This document shows positions 4,483 to 62,814 of a DNA stretch of 64,000 nt, one piece after another. The number at the start of each line of letters is the position of its first letter. Position 1 is the stretch's first letter. The stretch is taken from NCBI GenBank assembly GCA_026707445.1, contig JAPOWV010000016.1:6758-70757 (forward strand), in the 5' to 3' direction. A program made the translations under genes and the position numbers. This DNA is from Gammaproteobacteria bacterium. GTDB taxonomy: Bacteria; Pseudomonadota; Gammaproteobacteria; Steroidobacterales; Foliamicaceae. Below the pieces are notes generated by a model. The model saw only the letters and a list, made by a program, of their open reading frames with translations. It made no database searches and was not told where the DNA came from.

Positions 4483-4810
4483 ACAACTTGAAGCGGAACA
4501 AATCCGCACCGATCTGCCCGATTTTTCTCCGGGCGACACGGTAGTGGTGCAGGTGCGCGTGCGCGAGGGGCAGCGACAGCGTTTGCAGGCCTTCGAAGGC
4601 GTCGTGATCGCCAAGCGCAACCGTGGCCTCAACTCCTCCTTTACCGTGCGCAAGATATCCCACGGCGAAGGGGTCGAGCGGGTGTTTCAGACCCACAGCC
4701 CGATGATCGCCGGGGTCAAGGTCAAACGCCGCGGCGACGTGCGGCGCGCAAAACTCTATTACCTTCGGCAGCGGCGCGGGCGGAGCGCGAGAATTCGCGA
4801 GAAGCTATGA
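4466..4810 (+). CDS. rplS: 50S ribosomal protein L19
   Basis: ATG at 4466 gives [35 protein letters not shown]...[27 protein letters not shown]. It overlaps the trmD end by 17 nt. Confidence 0.93.
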
Positions 4811-5652
4811 GGCTGAAGGGCCTGGCCCTTGCTGTTTTTGCGATAGGCCTTTCCGGCTGCGGTTCGCTGATTCAATCCGCCACCAGTGGCCTGACCGAAC
4901 AACTCGGCGACGCCGTTCTGGGCCACGACGACCCCGAACTCGTTCGCGATGCCACGCCCACGCTGCTCATCCTGATCGACAGCCTGGCCGGCGAGGAGGC
5001 CGACCCCGCGGTCCTGGGGTCCGCCGCGCAGTTGTACGCCGCCTATGGCGTGGTTTTCGTCAACGATTCCGAACGCGCGCACAAGCTGACCGAGCGTGCC
5101 TACGGCTACGGCCGCCGGGCACTGTGCGCCGCCGACCGGACGGGATGCGGCGTGCAGCAACTGGGTTTCGAGGAATACGAGGCCCGGATCGGCGCGTATC
5201 CGGCCGCGCAGGCACAGGCCCTTTATGACTACCTGATCGGCTACCTCTCCTGGGTCCAGGCCCGCGGCGATTATGAGGCGCTGGCCCGGCTTCCGCGGCT
5301 GCAGGTGGCGCTTGACCGGCTGCTGGACGTTGCGCCGGCCGACATTCGCGGGCGCGCACATATGTACATGGGCACCCTGCAATGCCTGCGGCCGGCTTCG
5401 CTGGGCGGCGAACCGGAAGCGGGCATGCGGAATTTCGATGAGGCGCTGCGCCTGACCGAGCGCAAGGACCTGAGCGTTCTGGTGGAATATGCGAGAAACT
5501 GCGCCCGGTTGCTCTATGATCGCGAACTGCATGACAGGCTGCTTGAGGAGGTGCTCGACGCCCCCGCCGATCAGCCGGGTCTTACGCTTTTCAACAATCT
5601 CGCCAAGGCCGACGCCCGGGAATTGCTGAGTACTGCCGATGAATACTTCTGA
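4807..5652 (+). CDS. TatT-like TPR lipoprotein associated with a TRAP transporter
   Basis: Lipobox LSGC after a signal peptide, with helical-repeat content. It sits directly upstream of, and overlaps, the dctP/Q/M-type genes (ATGA overlap with rplS, 14-nt overlap with the binding-protein gene). It resembles the TRAP TatT component family. Confidence 0.65.
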
Positions 5653-6664
5653 GTCCGGCTCGCTGCGGTCCGCCGCGCTGATCGTGGCTGCTCTGCTGGC
5701 GGCCGGTCCGCTCACGGCGCAGACGCTTAAGATCGCGACCGTAACGCCCGAGGGCTCGGCCTGGATGCGCGACATGCGCGCCGCGGCCGCGGAAATCCGC
5801 GAGCGCACCGACGGGCAGGTGCAGGTGAAGTTCTACGGCGGCGGCGTGATGGGCGATGACTTGAGGGTGCTGCGCAAGATTCGCGTCGGCCAGTTGCAGG
5901 GAGCGGTGCTGACTTCCAGCGCGCTGGCCGGCCGGTATCCGGACGTGCTGCAGTACGGGCTTCCGCTGTTGTTCCGTTCGCGCGACGAGATGCTGTTCGT
6001 GCGCCAGCGATTTGACTCCGTGCTGGCGGAAGGCCTGCTGGACAGCGGATACGAGACTTTCGGCTTCGGCAGCCTGGGCTTTGCCCGCATCATGTCGGGC
6101 AGGAAGCCGGTGGTCAGTCTGGAGGATGCGCGCGGGCTGAAGATCTGGGTGCCCGAAGGCGACGATATCGGCTTGAGCTCGATGCGTTCGGTGGGTCTGG
6201 CCCCCGTCCAGCTTCCGATCTCCGACGTGCTGGTCGGGCTGCAGACGGGGCTGGTGGAGGTGATCGTGACGCCGCCTTCGGGCGCCATCCTGCTGCAATG
6301 GCACACTCGCCTGCGCTATGTCACGGACTTTCCCGTGGTGTTCGCCTTCGGCCTGCTGGCGATGGACAGGAGGGCTTTCGGCAGGTTGGCCGAGCCCGAC
6401 CAGGCGGTGGTCCGCGACGTGTTCGGCGCACTGGCCTCCCAGCTTGACCGCCGGGACGCCCAGGAAAACCTCGAAGCGGGACAGGCGCTGAAGAACTCCG
6501 GTCTCGAATACCTGGCACCGACGTCCGACGAGGTTCTCCGCTGGCGCCGGGCTTTCACGCGGATCTACCCCGAACTGGTGCGCGAAGCCGGGATGTCGCG
6601 TGGCATGCACGAAGAAATCGTGCAGGCGCTTGACGATTTCCGCGGCGGATCGGGATCCGGCTGA
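5639..6664 (+). CDS. TRAP transporter substrate-binding protein (DctP family)
   Basis: Signal peptide followed by LKIATVTPEGSAWMRDM...VKFYGGGVMGDD...GQLQGAVLTS, the DctP-type periplasmic binding protein pattern. DctQ/DctM-type genes follow. Confidence 0.8.
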   Translation: MNTSESGSLRSAALIVAALLAAGPLTAQTLKIATVTPEGSAWMRDMRAAAAEIRERTDGQVQVKFYGGGVMGDDLRVLRKIRVGQLQGAVLTSSALAGRYPDVLQYGLPLLFRSRDEMLFVRQRFDSVLAEGLLDSGYETFGFGSLGFARIMSGRKPVVSLEDARGLKIWVPEGDDIGLSSMRSVGLAPVQLPISDVLVGLQTGLVEVIVTPPSGAILLQWHTRLRYVTDFPVVFAFGLLAMDRRAFGRLAEPDQAVVRDVFGALASQLDRRDAQENLEAGQALKNSGLEYLAPTSDEVLRWRRAFTRIYPELVREAGMSRGMHEEIVQALDDFRGGSGSG

Positions 6665-13733: not shown

Positions 13734-14544
13734 GGCATTTGTCGGAGGGGCCATAGCGGCCGCGGGACTGCGGGGCGCGAGGGCGCATGAACGGCCGGAG
13801 GACAGTGTCCTGTTCGTCCTGGTGCACGGCACCGGTCACGGCGGCTGGTGCTGGAAATTCGTGCGCGACATCCTCGACGAACAGGGGCACCGTGTCTACA
13901 CGCCCACGCTGACCGGCTGCGGCGAGCGCTCGCACCTGCTTCACCCCGACATCGGGCTGGAGCTCCACATTCAGGACATCGTGAACGTGCTCGAATGGGA
14001 AGAACTCGAAAACGTGGTGCTGGTGGGGCACTCCTACGGCGGGCTGGTAATTTCCGGCGTGGCTGACCGGGCCAAGGAGCGCTTGCGCCACCTTGTCTAT
14101 CTGGATGCAATCATTCCCGGAGACGGAGACAGCCTGCTTTCGGCGCGCCGCGACGCCAGCGCCGAGGAAGTAGCTGCCAACAAGGAGATCTGGGGCCGAA
14201 TTGCGCCAGACGGCGAGTATGTCATGGGCTTCTCCGCCACGATGTTCGGAATTCCCCCGGAGTCATCCAACGCGGCCTGGGTGGAGCGCAGACTCACACC
14301 GCACCCGATCAAGAGCTGGCTGGACCCGGTGAAGTTCGAGAACGGCGGCGAGGAAGGCGTGCCCTGCACTTTCATCGAGTGCACCGAACCCGCCATGCCC
14401 GGCGCCGGCCTCAGCGCCCACGCCCAACACGCCAAAGACCATCCGGGCTGGCGCTACGTGGAGCTCAAGACCGGCCACGACGCCATGGTGACGGAACCGC
14501 AGGCCTGCGCCGACCTGTTCCTGGCCGCCGCCCGCTCCTCCTGA
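13708..14544 (+). CDS. Alpha/beta hydrolase (esterase, SABP2/MeSA-esterase-like) with a twin-arginine signal
   Basis: Tat motif TRRAFVGGAIAAAGL. Oxyanion-hole region VLVHGTGHGGWCW and nucleophile elbow VGHSYGG, with a C-terminal GHDAMVTEP. Confidence 0.8.
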   Translation: MNMSKATRRAFVGGAIAAAGLRGARAHERPEDSVLFVLVHGTGHGGWCWKFVRDILDEQGHRVYTPTLTGCGERSHLLHPDIGLELHIQDIVNVLEWEELENVVLVGHSYGGLVISGVADRAKERLRHLVYLDAIIPGDGDSLLSARRDASAEEVAANKEIWGRIAPDGEYVMGFSATMFGIPPESSNAAWVERRLTPHPIKSWLDPVKFENGGEEGVPCTFIECTEPAMPGAGLSAHAQHAKDHPGWRYVELKTGHDAMVTEPQACADLFLAAARSS

Positions 14545-14546
14545 GC

Positions 14547-15296
14547 CTGGATACGATAACGTTCGTTCTCGTTCACGGCACCGGCCACGGCGGCTGGTGC
14601 TGGAAGTTCGTGCGTGGGATCCTGGAAGGGCAGGGACATCGCGTCTACACGCCCACGCTTACGGGCTGCGGCGAGCGCTCGCACCTGCTCCATCCGGACA
14701 TCGGCCTGGAGACGCACATTCAGGACATCGTGAACGTGCTCGAGTGGGAAGAACTGAACGACGTGGTGCTCGTGGGTCATTCCTACGGCGGATGCGTCGT
14801 TTCCGGTGTTGCGGACCGGGCCAAGGACCGGCTGCGGCACCTGGTGTACCTGGACACGGTCATTCTGAGTCATGGCGAAAGCCTGGTCGGCTCCCGCCGG
14901 GAGATGAGCGATGCCGAGGGGGATGCGGATATCGAGCGTCGCCGGAGCATGGCGCCGGACGGCAAGTACATCGTGGCGCGCTCCGGAGAGTTCTACGGAA
15001 TTCCGCCCGAGCCCGCGGACGTCCTCGAGTGGGTGAACCGGAGGCTGACTCCGCATCCGCTGAAAAGCTGGCTGGAGCCGGTGAAGTTCGAGAACGGCGG
15101 CGAGCAAGGCGTGCCCAGGACCTTCATCCGCTGCACCGACCCCGAAATGCCCTTCAGCGGAATAAGGGACCACGCGATGTTCGCGAAGGAGCACCCCCAA
15201 TGGCGGTATGAGGAACTTGCGACCGGCCACGACGCCATGGTGACCGAGCCGCAGGCCTGCGCCGACCTGTTCCTGGCCGCCGCGCAATCTTCGTAA
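14547..15296 (+). CDS. Alpha/beta hydrolase, tandem paralog of 13708-14544 lacking a signal peptide and a canonical start codon
   Basis: Colinear with the mature part of the upstream gene: FVLVHGTGHGGWCWKF, VGHSYGG, and GHDAMVTEPQACADLFLAAA, whose coding DNA is near-identical. The homologous region begins 3 nt after the upstream stop in another frame. The only in-frame candidate starts are CTG 14547 and the distant GTG 14379. Confidence 0.6.
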   Translation: MDTITFVLVHGTGHGGWCWKFVRGILEGQGHRVYTPTLTGCGERSHLLHPDIGLETHIQDIVNVLEWEELNDVVLVGHSYGGCVVSGVADRAKDRLRHLVYLDTVILSHGESLVGSRREMSDAEGDADIERRRSMAPDGKYIVARSGEFYGIPPEPADVLEWVNRRLTPHPLKSWLEPVKFENGGEQGVPRTFIRCTDPEMPFSGIRDHAMFAKEHPQWRYEELATGHDAMVTEPQACADLFLAAAQSS

Positions 15297-24602: not shown

Positions 24603-25619
24603 ATGACGAACGCGAACCTCGCTGAAATCGCGCAAGCCATGGTGGCGCCCGGCAAGGGCATCCTGGCGGCCGACGAAAGCACTCCAACGATCGGAAAGCG
24701 CTTTGCGAGCATCGGGGTGGAATCGACCGAGCCGCTGCGCCGCGACTACCGCGCCATGCTGTTTGCCGCACCGGAAGCCGACCGTTACATCAGCGGCGTG
24801 ATCCTCTTCGATGAAACGCTGCGGCAGACCATGCCGGACGGCGAACCGATACCTCAATATCTGGCGGGCCGGGGCATGATTCCCGGAATCAAGGTGGACA
24901 AGGGCGCCAAGCCGCTGGCCGGATGCCCGGGGGAGAAGATCACCGAAGGCCTCGACGGGCTGCGCGCGCGGCTGGCGGAATATCGCGGCCTCGGCGCCCG
25001 GTTCGCCAAGTGGCGGGCGGTGATCGCGATCGGCGAGGGGGCGCCCAGCGACTGCTGCGTGCACGCCAATGCCCATGCGCTGGCGCGCTACGCGGCGCTA
25101 TGCCAGGAGGGCGGCCTGGTGCCCATAGTGGAGCCGGAAGTGCTGATGGACGGTCCGCACCCCTTATCCCGCTGCGAGCAGGTGACCGGCGCGGTGCTTG
25201 ATCAGACCTTCGACGAGTTGGAGCGGCACCGGGTTGATCCGGAAGGCATCGTGCTCAAGCCGAACATGGTCGTGTCCGGCAACGAGTGCCCGGCGCAGGC
25301 CGGCGTGGAGGAGGTGGCGGTGGCCACGCTGCGGACGCTGAAGGCGCACGTGCCGTCGGCGGTGCCGGGTATCGCTTTCCTGTCCGGCGGACAGTCGGCG
25401 GAAGAAGCCACCGCCCACCTGAGCGCCATGAATGCGCAGGGACCGCACCCTTGGCAGGTGTCGTTCTCTTACGGGCGCGCGCTGCAGGCGCCGGCCCTGA
25501 CGGCCTGGCAGGGCAGGGCGGATCAGCTGGTCGACGCGCAGCGGGCCTTCGGCGAGCGCGCCCGGCTCAACGGCCTGGCGCGCACCGGCGACTACCGCCC
25601 GGAGCTGGAAGCCGCCTAA
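24603..25619 (+). CDS. fba: Fructose-bisphosphate aldolase, class I
   Basis: ATG at 24603 is preceded by GAAGGGAGA. Contains GKGILAADESTPTIGKRF, ISGVILFDETL, PGIKVDKG and VLKPNMV (Schiff-base Lys region). Confidence 0.9.
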   Translation: MTNANLAEIAQAMVAPGKGILAADESTPTIGKRFASIGVESTEPLRRDYRAMLFAAPEADRYISGVILFDETLRQTMPDGEPIPQYLAGRGMIPGIKVDKGAKPLAGCPGEKITEGLDGLRARLAEYRGLGARFAKWRAVIAIGEGAPSDCCVHANAHALARYAALCQEGGLVPIVEPEVLMDGPHPLSRCEQVTGAVLDQTFDELERHRVDPEGIVLKPNMVVSGNECPAQAGVEEVAVATLRTLKAHVPSAVPGIAFLSGGQSAEEATAHLSAMNAQGPHPWQVSFSYGRALQAPALTAWQGRADQLVDAQRAFGERARLNGLARTGDYRPELEAA

Positions 25620-25638
25620 GCAACGGCGCTCCGATGCC

Positions 25639-25746
25639 GCCTTCTATTCGCATCCCTCTTCCGGGAGACGCATGAATACATCCCTGTAGCTTGGTTCCGC
25701 CATCCCTGGCTCACACACTCCCGGAAGAGGGATGCGAATAGAAGGC
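25639..25746 (+). repeat. Structured repeat, copy A: 29-bp perfect inverted repeat around a 50-nt loop, with a conserved 70-nt core (25658-25727) shared with copy B
   Basis: The left arm gccttctattcgcatccctcttccgggag (25639-25667) is the exact reverse complement of the right arm (25718-25746). The loop is acgcatgaatacatccctgtagcttggttccgccatccctggctcacaca. It starts 19 nt after the fba stop, between convergent genes. Confidence 0.85.
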
Positions 25747-25771
25747 TTACGGGGTGTCCTCGCTCCCGGGA

Positions 25772-30882: not shown

Positions 30883-30894
30883 TGGCACATTGCC

Positions 30895-30982
30895 GGAGAG
30901 GTGGCCGAGTGGACGAAGGCGCCTGATTGGAGATCAGGTATACGGTCATACCGTATCGTGGGTTCGAATCCCACCCTCTCCG
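30895..30982 (+). tRNA. tRNA-Ser (anticodon GGA)
   Basis: Acceptor stem GGAGAGG/CCTCTCC plus discriminator G. Anticodon stem CCTGA/TCAGG with loop TTGGAGA. Long variable arm ATACGG-TCAT-CCGTAT and T-arm GTGGG-TTCGAAT-CCCAC. No CCA is encoded. Confidence 0.93.
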
Positions 30983-31016
30983 TATTTTGAAAGCCGCTGG
31001 ACAGAATTGATCGGCC

Positions 31017-46310: not shown

Positions 46311-46340
46311 CTCAGGGCGGGGCCGCTTCGATCCCGCCGT

Positions 46341-59309: not shown

Positions 59310-60107
59310 ATGAGAAGACAGTTACCGGTCGAATTCGTTTTTCAGCTTTTCTCGCTGTTCCTGTCGGTGATCCTGGTACACGCCATGTACGTGGCCTGGA
59401 TCCGCCCGCAGGCCAACGCGGTCATGGAAGAGCAGCGGATACAGCTGGAACAGGACGCCGACTACGTGCCCGAACGCTCCCTGTACGTGATCGTGCGCGA
59501 TTTCGAGCAGGAGGCCTGCCTGATCCTGGCGCTTTGGGCGCTGGCGATCATGGGCTACAAGGCCCGCGGGGCGCTGCGCGAACGCTCGCTGCTGCAGCGC
59601 GATCTGCTGCCGCTGGCGGAAGGGGTTCGCATCCTGCCGGAGGACACCCGCGAGCACGCGCGCCAATTGCGTGCGCTGCCGGAATCGCAACAGCGCCTGC
59701 TGTTGCCGCGGGTATTGCTCAGCGCGCTGCAGCGATTCGGCGCGACGGGCAATGTGCAGGACGTCTCTTCGGCCACCCAGACGCTGGTCAACGCTGAGGC
59801 CGAGCGGCTGGAATCGGAACTGTCCATGATCCGGTATATCGCATGGGCGATACCCTCGATCGGCTTTATCGGTACCGTGCGCGGGATCGGCCAGGCGCTG
59901 ACGCTCGCCTACCGGGCCGTGGAAGGCGACATCAGCGGCGTGACCGAGAGCCTGGGCGTGGCCTTCAATTCAACCTTCTTTGCCCTGCTGGTCAGCATTT
60001 TCATCATGTTTCTGGTCCACCAGCTTCAATTGTTGCAGGAGCGACTGGTCTTCGAGACCTCGGATTACTGCGACGAACGGCTGATCCGCCGCCTGCAGGG
60101 CGACTGA
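59310..60107 (+). CDS. MotA/TolQ/ExbB-family proton channel protein
   Basis: Four predicted TM helices. The C-terminal signature is LSMIRYIAWAIPSIGFIGTVRGIGQAL...GVAFNSTFFALLVSIFIMFLVHQL. The start is ATG 59310 (TTG 59292 is possible), 10 nt after the sixA-like stop. Confidence 0.8.
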   Translation: MRRQLPVEFVFQLFSLFLSVILVHAMYVAWIRPQANAVMEEQRIQLEQDADYVPERSLYVIVRDFEQEACLILALWALAIMGYKARGALRERSLLQRDLLPLAEGVRILPEDTREHARQLRALPESQQRLLLPRVLLSALQRFGATGNVQDVSSATQTLVNAEAERLESELSMIRYIAWAIPSIGFIGTVRGIGQALTLAYRAVEGDISGVTESLGVAFNSTFFALLVSIFIMFLVHQLQLLQERLVFETSDYCDERLIRRLQGD

Positions 60108-61539: not shown

Positions 61540-62626
61540 GCGCTTTCACGTATTCAGCATGTCGTTTCTGGACATCATTTCCTGCGGCTTCGGCGCGGTC
61601 GTGCTGTTCTTCGTGATCATCAACGCCCAGGTGCGCCTGCGGGCCGATGCCGAGCGCATCGATCTGCTCAGCGAATCCACACGGCTGGAAGAGGAGGTCC
61701 TGGAAGGGCGAAAGGACCTGCTGCAGTTACGCGGCGAGCGCGACACGCTCGACGAGCGCCGCGCCACGGCAATCGAGGAGTTGAGAAAGCTGCGCGAACG
61801 CCTTGCCGCCTTGCTGGCGGAGCTGGCGGAATACGAGCGCCTGGGGACGCAAAGCCAGGAGTCGGTCGAGCGGCTTCGGGTCGACGTGGACCGGCTCAGG
61901 GAAATGCAGGCGGAACTTGAGGCGCGGGTCGCCGAGGCGGAGGAAGGAACGGGGCAGCGGGTGCGTGGCTTTGAAGGCGAGGGCGCGCGGCAATACCTGA
62001 CGGGCATGCAGATGGGTGGCGACCGCGTAATGATTCTCGTGGATGCGTCCGCCAGCATGCTGGGGCGCACCTATATCGACGTCTTGCGGTTTCGCCTGAT
62101 GGACGAGGAACTCAAGCCCCGGGCTCCCAAATGGGTCCAGGTCGTGAATTCGGTGGACTGGATCACCACGCGTCTGGAGCCGCAGCAGAGATTTCAGGTC
62201 TACATCTTCGGGGTGGAGCACAGAAGCATCCTCGAGGGCACGGACGGCGAGTGGCTGAGCGTGGCCGACGGGGCGCGGGTAGGCGAAGCGATCGAGGCCC
62301 TGCGCAATTTTGCGCCGAGGGGCGGGACCAGCCTGCATGCGGCGATGCGCGCCATCCGCGCCATGCAGCCGCTGCCGGACAATGTGTACCTGTTGACCGA
62401 CGGACTGCCGACGCAGGGCGCCAGTCCTCCCTCGCGGGTCGGATGGGTGGATACGCGGGCGCGCGAGCGGTTCTTTACCCGCGCGGTGCGCGACCTGCCC
62501 TCGGGGATTCCGGTCAATGTGCTGTTCTACCCGATGGACGGGGACCCGGCCGCGACCGGCTACTACTGGCTGATGGCTTCGCAGTCCCGGGGATCGTTCG
62601 TCAGCGTTTCCCGCGACTGGCCCTGA
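61529..62626 (+). CDS. ExbD/TolR/MotB-like single-pass membrane protein fused to a periplasmic coiled coil and a vWA domain
   Basis: 11-nt overlap with the upstream gene. A basic N-terminus plus a TM helix with a lone Asp (MARRRFHVFSMSFLDIISCGFGAVVLFFVI). About 100 aa of E/R/L-rich heptad-like sequence follow. The vWA domain has a MIDAS (DRVMILVDASASM ... GGTSL ... VYLLTDG). Confidence 0.7.
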   Translation: MARRRFHVFSMSFLDIISCGFGAVVLFFVIINAQVRLRADAERIDLLSESTRLEEEVLEGRKDLLQLRGERDTLDERRATAIEELRKLRERLAALLAELAEYERLGTQSQESVERLRVDVDRLREMQAELEARVAEAEEGTGQRVRGFEGEGARQYLTGMQMGGDRVMILVDASASMLGRTYIDVLRFRLMDEELKPRAPKWVQVVNSVDWITTRLEPQQRFQVYIFGVEHRSILEGTDGEWLSVADGARVGEAIEALRNFAPRGGTSLHAAMRAIRAMQPLPDNVYLLTDGLPTQGASPPSRVGWVDTRARERFFTRAVRDLPSGIPVNVLFYPMDGDPAATGYYWLMASQSRGSFVSVSRDWP

Positions 62627-62639
62627 ATACTCGCCGGCG

Positions 62640-62751
62640 CGCTGGCGCTGCTGCACGGCCCTTCCGGGAGACGCATAAATCCATCCATGGAGCTTGGTTC
62701 CGCCATCCCTGGCTCACACACTCCCTGAAGGGCCGTGCAGCAGCGCCAGCG
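62640..62751 (+). repeat. Structured repeat, copy B: 31-bp inverted repeat (1 mismatch) around a 50-nt loop, with a conserved 70-nt core (62661-62730) shared with copy A
   Basis: The left arm cgctggcgctgctgcacggcccttccgggag (62640-62670) pairs with the right arm 62721-62751, except for one C/T opposition (62665/62726). The loop is acgcataaatccatccatggagcttggttccgccatccctggctcacaca. It starts 13 nt after the vWA-gene stop. Confidence 0.85.
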
Positions 62752-62814
62752 AACATTGCAAGCTGTTCCATGCGGGGCCGCCGTAGCGAAAACTGCGGGA
62801 TAATGCGCGGCGGT

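Follow-up and report, generated by a model that had tools for sequence, protein, structure and literature searches.

What sort of element keeps its centre nearly constant from one site to another, while the sequences on either side of that centre differ beyond recognition and still pair with each other? The question is raised by two long hairpins in a 64,000-nt stretch of DNA – the window, in what follows – from an uncultured member of the Foliamicaceae (Gammaproteobacteria bacterium, assembly GCA_026707445.1, contig JAPOWV010000016.1, positions 6,758 to 70,757). In the first of these, copy A, the two arms are exact reverse complements (29/29 nt) with 50 nt between them; in the second, copy B, arms of 31 nt are 97% complementary and enclose a spacer of the same 50 nt. 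The copies share a 70-nt core at 65 positions (92.9%, measured via the orthologous locus L010, whose core is identical to that of copy A), and a 22-mer from this core occurs exactly twice in the window, as against never in 100 shuffles. The outer 19–20 bp of the stems, however, cannot be aligned between A and B. An initial annotation, made from the sequence alone, had described just such a repeated structured element, with a constant centre and with outer stems that are dissimilar yet self-paired (A at 100%, B at 97%), and self-comparison of the window bears it out. It had also placed both hairpins within 20 nt of a stop codon, in the orientation of the upstream gene and thus in the 3′ untranslated region (3′ UTR); the distances are 19 nt after the stop codon at 25617–25619 for copy A and 13 nt after that at 62624–62626 for copy B, the upstream open reading frames (ORFs) on the + strand encoding a class I aldolase-like protein (ending at 25619) and a VWA-domain protein (ending at 62626). 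The direct repeat noted in the loop is likewise there: CATCCCTG occurs twice in copy A, at 25679–25686 and 25701–25708.

The hairpin is probably one copy of a non-autonomous mobile hairpin repeat, of the kind represented by miniature inverted-repeat transposable elements (MITEs) and repetitive extragenic palindromes (REPs). The unit that moves would be the entire ~130–150 nt – a short 5′ motif, here called U, a 27–31 bp stem, a 50-nt apical module and a short 3′ tail – which would be mobilised in trans by an enzyme encoded elsewhere and would settle in intergenic DNA just past stop codons. Inserted in sense after a gene, it would become part of the transcript’s 3′ UTR, where its very stable hairpin could shape mRNA 3′ ends. 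The predicted fold of the whole element has a minimum free energy of −80.6 kcal/mol on the + strand (z = −9.1) and −82.2 kcal/mol on the − strand (z ~ −9).

The two copies belong to a family. An exact scan of species-representative genomes with the 22-mer found 23 loci in four uncultured gammaproteobacterial metagenome-assembled genomes (MAGs), 17 of them in SB0673_bin_2, and a covariance model added ~10 further, more diverged copies, so that the genome-wide search proposed at the outset revealed many copies and not just two sites. Relatives of the window’s genome include Candidatus Foliamicus (order Ca. Foliamicales). The stem is 25–32 bp long in every MAG copy and perfect in 12 of 25, units across the family measure ~130–190 nt, and none contains an ORF beyond spurious read-through. 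Three classes can be told apart. Class 1, that of copy A, has the upstream motif U (GGCGCTTCGATCCCGCC), a pyrimidine-rich left arm with the consensus GCCnTTCTTCnCCCCCTTCTTCCGGGAG and a 3′ foot GGCT(T)ACGG. Class 2, that of copy B, follows the pattern GGCTGGCG-CGCTGG...CCAGCG-AAnnnnGCAAG...TATGG, the GGCTGGCG-like lead and CGAA..GCAAG..TATGG-like tail of copy B being common to other class-2 copies. A third class is bounded by GTGCTTCCTCGCC...GGGCTTTAGCTGG, and its second apical hairpin is shorter or different.

Classes 1 and 2 agree in the apical module and in the 10 bp of stem next to it, and differ in their outer arms and ends; it is this difference of subfamily that makes the outer stems of A and B look unrelated. 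Among members of one subfamily, arms are recognisably homologous between unlinked copies (L004/L019, L008/L012 and L013/L041), although their sequence varies from copy to copy; the conserved ends of the window’s subfamilies – U and the tails – are asymmetric. The term ‘locus-specific’, applied earlier to the outer stems, was therefore misleading, as the arms are subfamily-specific, and the supposed replacement of ~20 bp between A and B falls away, the flanks being those of different subfamilies (U...TACGG versus GGCTGGCG...CGAA..TATGG).

Comparison of filled and empty sites shows what is gained and lost. The window’s genome is ~90% identical to SB0673_bin_2 over syntenic stretches. At L019 734–875, a 142-nt block composed of AAGGGC-U, the hairpin and TACGGGGTGACGCA is missing from the corresponding position of the window, an empty site 2 nt past a stop codon that shows no target duplication relative to L019. 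(This part of the window, 13817–15289, holds two tandem paralogous genes of ~730 nt each, ~77% identical, and the L019 element sits exactly between them.) Copy B, in turn, is absent from the spacer between the VWA and SDR genes of five relatives (95, 90, 87, 81 and 75% protein identity), where this spacer measures 35–127 nt compared with 191 nt in the window; it was thus gained in the window’s lineage. A candidate 8-bp target-site duplication (TSD) for copy B (CGCCGGCG/CGCCGTAG versus CCCGGCAG in L024) was rejected, as other class-2 copies have a homologue of its left 8-mer in their conserved GGCTGGCG lead. The same spacer contains a conserved, −10-like GCGGGATAATGCGCG block, ~20 nt upstream of the SDR start codon (window 62790–62805 and orthologues L024–L028), and the insertion of copy B displaced whatever stood upstream of it.

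The site of copy A differs among relatives. The window and L010 carry an identical class-1 element there; L149, roughly equidistant, has only U, joined to the sequence beside the permease stop codon; L150 and L151 have a class-3 element in the same spot and the same orientation; and two outgroups are empty, without U. In L151 (7324–7619) two to three class-3 elements form a rearranged tandem array in the permease–aldolase spacer, where L150, a close relative, has a single copy. A similar reduction to U is found at 46322–46338 of the window, the counterpart of a full element with a 36-nt tail at L014 7295–7428; this solo U, GCCGCTTCGATCCCGCC, lies between two convergent stop codons and folds into a small GC hairpin. 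In 13 instances U is joined to a long hairpin; it stands alone only at 46322 in the scanned sequence and, a second time, in L149. As relatives carry full elements at both of these sites, we take U to belong to the element and a solo U to be what a deletion left behind; U is unlikely to be a relic of a tRNA T-arm or a pre-existing target or preferred landing site.

At none of the empty sites compared is either arm present. The empty-site comparison that the initial annotation had called for thus shows the entire hairpin – outer stem, U and tail included – gained or lost as one unit, and this contradicts two of the three mechanisms that it had put forward, namely insertion of a small element at the apex of pre-existing palindromes and an inverted duplication of flanking DNA. 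Its third option, an RNA module with a constant loop and a programmable stem, holds as a description only: there is no sign of targeting, and the arms of A and B have no other match in the window.

How, then, can the stems vary so much and remain paired? In an alignment of 25 copies, 24 of the 27 pairs of the long stem have changed on both sides, and 97% of the cells are paired; the covariation score was reached by none of 500 shuffles, slid registers drop to 37–54% pairing and RNAalifold independently predicts the same structure. G.U occupies only two of ~650 cells. Twelve close copy pairs (arms at least 80% identical) show 40 complete Watson–Crick double changes versus 8 uncompensated sites, and 16 of the 40 are of transversion type, with no possible wobble intermediate; one T-A to C-G double change separates even the orthologues L016 and L020, 91.5% identical overall. 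Read on the + strand, mismatches are A.C in 22 cases and G.T in 8, the opposite of what G.U tolerance in + strand RNA would lead one to expect. The earlier objection that compensatory drift could not have produced such stems is sound, inasmuch as ordinary slow drift describes their change inadequately (40 versus 8, with few intermediates).

A more suitable model comes from quasipalindrome correction by template switching and from gene conversion between palindrome arms, known processes that predict joint change of the arms, transversions included, almost no intermediates and, in addition, flip isomers. One such isomer exists: in L134 (6201–6372, − strand), a 172-nt relative described below, the central ~100 nt – inner arms and apical module – are inverted relative to the asymmetric outer ends, which requires exchange between both arms, i.e. 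an interaction at the DNA level. We infer that the arms are homogenised in DNA, whether through gene conversion between them or through intrastrand template switching, and that selection for pairing probably acts on top. Within a subfamily, arms drift, yet both arms of one copy change together; arm-to-arm copying and selection for pairing would keep each copy a near-perfect Watson–Crick palindrome. Quasipalindrome correction is nonetheless a process and not an element family, and on its own it leaves unexplained the low divergence of the orthologous copy A, to which we return.

The apical module is the most conserved part of the element across the superfamily. Single-stranded, it would fold into two mini-hairpins, hp1 and hp2, displaying TCC (GGA on the other strand). 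Variants of hp1 include TCCA-TCCA-TGGA, CCCA-TCCC-TGGG, TACA-TCCC-TGTA and GCCA-TCCC-TGGC; in a wider metagenomic set, gathered by a pattern on the hp1 side of the module and cited here and below for the matches listed, its outer pairs are Watson–Crick in 247 of 264 cases (132 distinct sequences). The stem of hp2 (4–11 bp overall) is GCCA/TGGC around a TCCC loop in copy A, GGCA/TGCC elsewhere and 6–11 bp long in others. TCC is present in every hp1 and hp2 loop. A correlated pair, T57-A82 in 16 copies or C57-G82 in 9, closes the hp2 branch, and in diverged members it is extended into a longer helix. The module alone gives no thermodynamic signal (z = +0.67), its structure being supported by covariation only. 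A helix AGCUUGG/CCUGGCU, proposed earlier for this loop, has to be given up, as it contains a U-U mismatch and clashes with the covarying hp2 at 25699–25710.

On the minus strand the loops of the module read CAGGGAUG and CAUGGAUG, which resemble the sites of CsrA/RsmA, where (A)NGGA is presented in two or more hairpin loops of the transcribed strand. The strand that runs with the upstream gene is, however, the plus strand in 15 of 17 tandem contexts among the MAGs and in 30 of 46 across the wider family, and there the loops read UCC. Its conservation across the superfamily makes the module the probable target of a trans-acting partner.

The link to mobile DNA is strengthened by this wider family. 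The module occurs in more than 120 metagenomic contigs from many metagenomes, in hosts with a GC content of 0.38–0.67. At least about 46 copies form a homogeneous 172-nt subfamily with the ends TCTGGTTATCCAGTTGACTCCA...TGGAGCGAAGTAGATAACCAGA, 22-bp terminal inverted repeats (TIRs) and the module at the apex; they are 85–95% identical from end to end at unrelated loci, with a conservation of ~0.95 in the TIRs and the apex versus 0.84–0.91 in the arms. Direct repeats of 8 bp flank them: in 32 of 35 copies these agree at six or more of the 8 positions, perfectly so in 16, compared with 1 of 140 offset controls. When copies were tested generically for a TSD adjoining a TIR, the result was positive for 27 of 33 copies of the 172-nt subfamily and for 6 of 62 other metagenomic copies, and for none of the 25 MAG copies; mismatched-partner controls gave none. 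From this test there emerged a second TIR type, GTAACTATTC...GAATAGTTAC, whose TSDs likewise measure 8 bp. Its group (L068, L077 and L113, as well as L063, L047 and L115) consists of module-bearing elements of ~140 nt with perfect or near-perfect 8-bp duplications. At L128 (650–865) lies a 216-nt element whose TIRs are related to the TCTGGTTATCC type, with a wholly different interior that lacks the apical module; the module is thus separable from that backbone.

The family has much in common with bacterial MITEs such as Correia/NEMIS of Neisseria, ERIC/IRU of enterobacteria and RUP of the pneumococcus, which are likewise small, non-coding, multi-copy elements with a long inverted-repeat hairpin. 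Like them, it is found in intergenic DNA near gene ends and shows insertion polymorphism between close relatives at syntenic loci, and its sister subfamilies with the same apical module have TIRs and 8-bp TSDs. In contrast to MITEs, its most conserved part is the centre rather than the termini, and its arms differ between copies yet stay perfectly paired; moreover, the window’s subfamilies have no detectable TSD or clean TIRs, and no parent insertion sequence was found in the sequences searched. Once transcribed, the hairpins of Correia and ERIC influence how mRNAs are processed and how stable they are.

A second comparison is with REPs and with REPINs, in which two inverted REPs form ends of invariant 16-mers around a variable apical spacer (PMC3116915). 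The likenesses to the REP/REPIN–RAYT system include extragenic hairpin repeats after genes, compensatory changes – reported across the hairpin for REPINs too (PMC3116915) – singlet remnants, vertical persistence at orthologous sites and the absence of a TSD. The organisation, however, is reversed: where REPINs have invariant ends, the hairpin repeat has an invariant apex and a variable mid-stem; its arms are not palindromic REPs, and no RAYT was found near the copies by tblastn. A GTAG-type foot is present as GGCTAC(GG) in many class-1 copies, others having GCTTAC, GCTCAG or GCTGC, and is absent from class 2. Integron attC sites, finally, resemble the hairpin repeat in that a long imperfect hairpin conserves structure over sequence, lies directly after a stop codon in a fixed orientation and has one preferred strand. 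They differ in the RYYYAAC/GTTRRRY boxes at their base, absent from the hairpin repeat, in their variable loop and in their neighbourhood, as the repeat lies among syntenic housekeeping genes and not in cassette arrays. What is unusual about the family is its structured apex with invariant TCC loops across backbones and hosts, the near-exclusively Watson–Crick coupling of the arms and the conservation of copies in situ.

Copies are placed 2–50 nt after stop codons, and where genes could be called clearly in the MAGs, the nearest upstream gene and the element share a strand. Between tandem genes, sense and antisense copies number 15 and 2 in the MAGs and 30 and 16 in the wider family; between divergent genes there is none in the MAG set and there are at least five in the wider family. 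In L022, two elements lie inside the msrP–msrQ spacer, the second member of the pair being antisense. Orientation is thus biased but not fixed, a pattern better explained by selection acting on inserted copies than by a mechanism that inserts them directionally. L022 contains three convergent (+ then −) element pairs of different subfamilies within 5 kb (1472–1719, 4651–4894 and 5943–6210), and the genes flanked by such pairs are msrP, msrQ and amt.

Several observations weigh against a mobile repeat of this kind. A defining feature of a MITE is missing from the window’s own subfamilies, which show no clean terminal inverted repeats beyond the hairpin and in which no TSD was found (0 of 25 MAG copies, no consistent offset, none at the L019 junction). 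No autonomous parent appeared in the loci examined, in plasmids or in viral contigs, and TIR pairs were all ~172 nt apart. The orientation bias points to function or post-insertion selection and not to transposition alone. Over ~131 nt, from U through the hairpin to the tenth nt of the tail, copy A does not differ from its L010 orthologue at a single position, whereas the coding sequence alongside has 82 differences in 858 sites (9.6%; Fisher p = 9e-6); the pair L016/L020 is less extreme, with 6 of 114 differences versus ~9.5%. Such conservation exceeds that of a decaying selfish insertion and is the strongest indication of a host-level function or of a recent exchange between lineages. The conservation of the centre, for its part, is partly an effect of ascertainment, as every search was seeded on it. 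A lack of transposase genes beside the copies is, on the other hand, what a non-autonomous element leads one to expect: Pfam searches of the L022 ORFs and of recurrent neighbours, together with clustering of neighbour proteins, returned only housekeeping families or spurious read-through ORFs, and tblastn with RayT and IS200 TnpA queries gave no match in ~352 kb around the copies, which is weak evidence.

Could the hairpin, then, be a host-functional 3′-UTR RNA – an mRNA 3′-end stabiliser, a terminator, a processing site or a source of small RNA, whose UCC loops bind a protein or GGA/Shine–Dalgarno-like sequences – with mobility secondary or historical? We regard this as possible, though unlikely. 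It would account for the sense orientation 2–50 nt after stop codons, for the 0/131 differences of copy A against 9.6% in its flanks and for covarying mini-hairpins with invariant loop triplets, and in Escherichia coli, REPs lying within ~15 nt of stop codons are reported to influence translation as well as the decay of mRNA. The U motif with its T-rich run is also terminator-like: that of copy A scores as such in a terminator scan with a loose consensus, and U can alternatively pair with the 3′ tail, if only partially. No terminator match was found at copy B, however, and the long hairpin is followed by GGCTTACGGGG or CGAACATT, with none of the U-run of an intrinsic terminator. A functional RNA also sits poorly with the near absence of G.U from the long stem (2 cells in 25 copies), with the relative rarity of mismatches that could wobble in + strand RNA (8 versus 22), with the 16 of 40 compensated changes that are transversions and have no wobble route, with the two elements in the msrP–msrQ spacer, one of them antisense, with the third of tandem-context copies in the wider family that are antisense and with the presence of the same module on TSD-making MITEs. 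The absence of TSDs from the clean L019 junction and from 25 MAG copies might instead mean that the window’s subfamilies are REP/REPIN-like and were moved as folded single-stranded DNA by an HUH (Y1) transposase of the RAYT or IS200–IS605 type, which would explain seamless insertion and excision without target duplication as well as a structural rather than a sequence constraint on the stem. To this one may add the class-1 foot GGCTAC(GG), which reads GTAG on the opposite strand, hp1 and hp2 as two direct-oriented subterminal-like hairpins, mismatch types that favour minus-strand folding by 22 to 8, solo U remnants resembling REP singlets and the compensatory hairpin changes also found in REPINs (PMC3116915). 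We nonetheless think it doubtful, in that REPINs conserve their ends and vary in the centre, the reverse of the hairpin repeat, the arms are not themselves palindromic REPs, tblastn found no Y1 transposase in the ~352 kb (weak evidence, as said), the GTAG-like foot is missing from class 2 and sister subfamilies make 8-bp TSDs, which are typical of DDE enzymes.

It is less probable still that the 50–70 nt apical module is itself mobile or exchangeable, inserting at the apex of varied pre-existing hairpin backbones. A near-identical module does occur in at least five unrelated backbones (classes 1, 2 and 3 and two TIR types), the core of the class-1 element in L019 is 98.6% identical to that of the class-2 copy B, a flip isomer exists and the L128 backbone combines related TIRs with a different interior. 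Yet in all filled/empty pairs the indel is the whole hairpin and not the module, U practically never precedes an apex-less hairpin, pre-insertion sites would need to be loop-less perfect palindromes, and conservation fades gradually outwards from the apex (inner stem TTC-GGGAG versus TTTCAGGG), as expected from common descent under graded constraint. Between this possibility and the functional RNA in likelihood, somewhat above the HUH-type reading and still improbable, stands a composite one: that the Y-shaped module is a separable functional platform – binding a protein or GGA/Shine–Dalgarno-like RNA, or helping single-strand recognition – acquired by or exchanged among mechanistically different backbones (TSD-making DDE-type MITEs and TSD-less REP-like elements) and kept by selection in hosts of 38–67% GC, with the arms held perfect by a fast arm-to-arm copying that natural populations would let one observe. 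An inverted duplication of flanks around an inserted core, or a chance or local duplication, can practically be dismissed: only the perfection of the arms speaks for such an origin, against which stand empty sites without either arm, arms that are homologous between unlinked copies and hundreds of copies in many genomes.

The mobile repeat that we favour would belong to a widespread, apparently uncatalogued superfamily of bacterial hairpin repeats. Rfam has no family, at gathering or permissive thresholds, for the window, the copy A region or six short metagenomic loci searched on both strands, the best scores being those of microRNA-precursor models (E ~0.8), far under their gathering scores. 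PLSDB plasmids gave no match to copy A or to a full TIR-bearing MITE copy, viral contigs none to the module or the TIR, and literature searches nothing relevant apart from the REPIN papers. The possibility, raised at the outset, that the core belongs to a known REP or MITE family of ordinary structure is partly right: the core is shared with ordinary MITEs (TIR and 8-bp TSD), but no catalogued family was found. A few other features were seen in passing. The sole Rfam match at gathering level in the window is a tRNA-Ser (anticodon GGA) at 30894–30983, unrelated to the element; a weak covariance-model match at 59338–59452 (14 bits, E = 0.53), without a recognisable apical module, is probably due to chance; and a 258-nt segment, 85% identical between otherwise unrelated loci of one MAG (L008 3619–3875 and L023 1408–1664), may be another repeat family. 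The features of the window that bear on the hairpin repeat are collected in the table.

Table. Hairpin-repeat features of the window and the basis on which each was delimited
Feature	Position	Strand	Basis or remark
Empty site where L019 734–875 holds a complete 142-nt class-1 unit	14546..14547	+	No target duplication
Copy A, whole unit, class 1 (5′ U hairpin, long hairpin, 3′ tail)	25624..25756	+	~131 nt identical to L010; same boundaries as the L019 indel
U motif GGCGCTCCGATGCCGCC: small GC hairpin, then T-rich start of left arm	25625..25641	+	Joined to long hairpin in 13 copies
Copy A, left arm	25639..25667	+	29/29 complementary; 24/27 aligned pairs covary
Copy A, apical module, 50 nt	25668..25717	+	Conserved throughout the superfamily
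hp1 mini-hairpin, TACA-TCCC-TGTA	25677..25688	+	Covariation; loop always TCCN
hp2 mini-hairpin, GCCA-TCCC-TGGC	25699..25710	+	Covariation; loop always contains TCC
Copy A, right arm	25718..25746	+	29/29 complementary
3′ tail TTACGGGGTG, class-1 foot GGCT(T)ACGG	25747..25756	+	Shared class-1 end
Solo U motif, remnant where L014 has a full element	46322..46338	+	Comparison with L014
Copy B, whole unit, class 2, approximate boundaries	62632..62778	+	Absent in five relatives; lead and tail common to other class-2 copies
Copy B, left arm	62640..62670	+	31-nt arm
Copy B, apical module	62671..62720	+	hp1 at 62680–62691, hp2 at 62702–62713
Copy B, right arm, one C.T mismatch	62721..62751	+	97% complementary

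Nothing known about the biology of MITEs or REPs is overturned by these hairpins. If the hairpins are mobile repeats as proposed, the defining conserved part of the family would be a structured apex and not the ends, making that apex a candidate recognition module with a partner that can be sought. The family would also provide an unusually clean natural record of the coupled evolution of inverted-repeat arms, by which palindrome correction at the DNA level becomes testable with population metagenomes, and, in uncultured gammaproteobacteria (order Candidatus Foliamicales), it would mark the DNA immediately past stop codons as hotspots of insertion, where copies can confound annotation – through spurious ORFs and false microRNA-like or terminator calls – and may modulate the expression of neighbouring genes.

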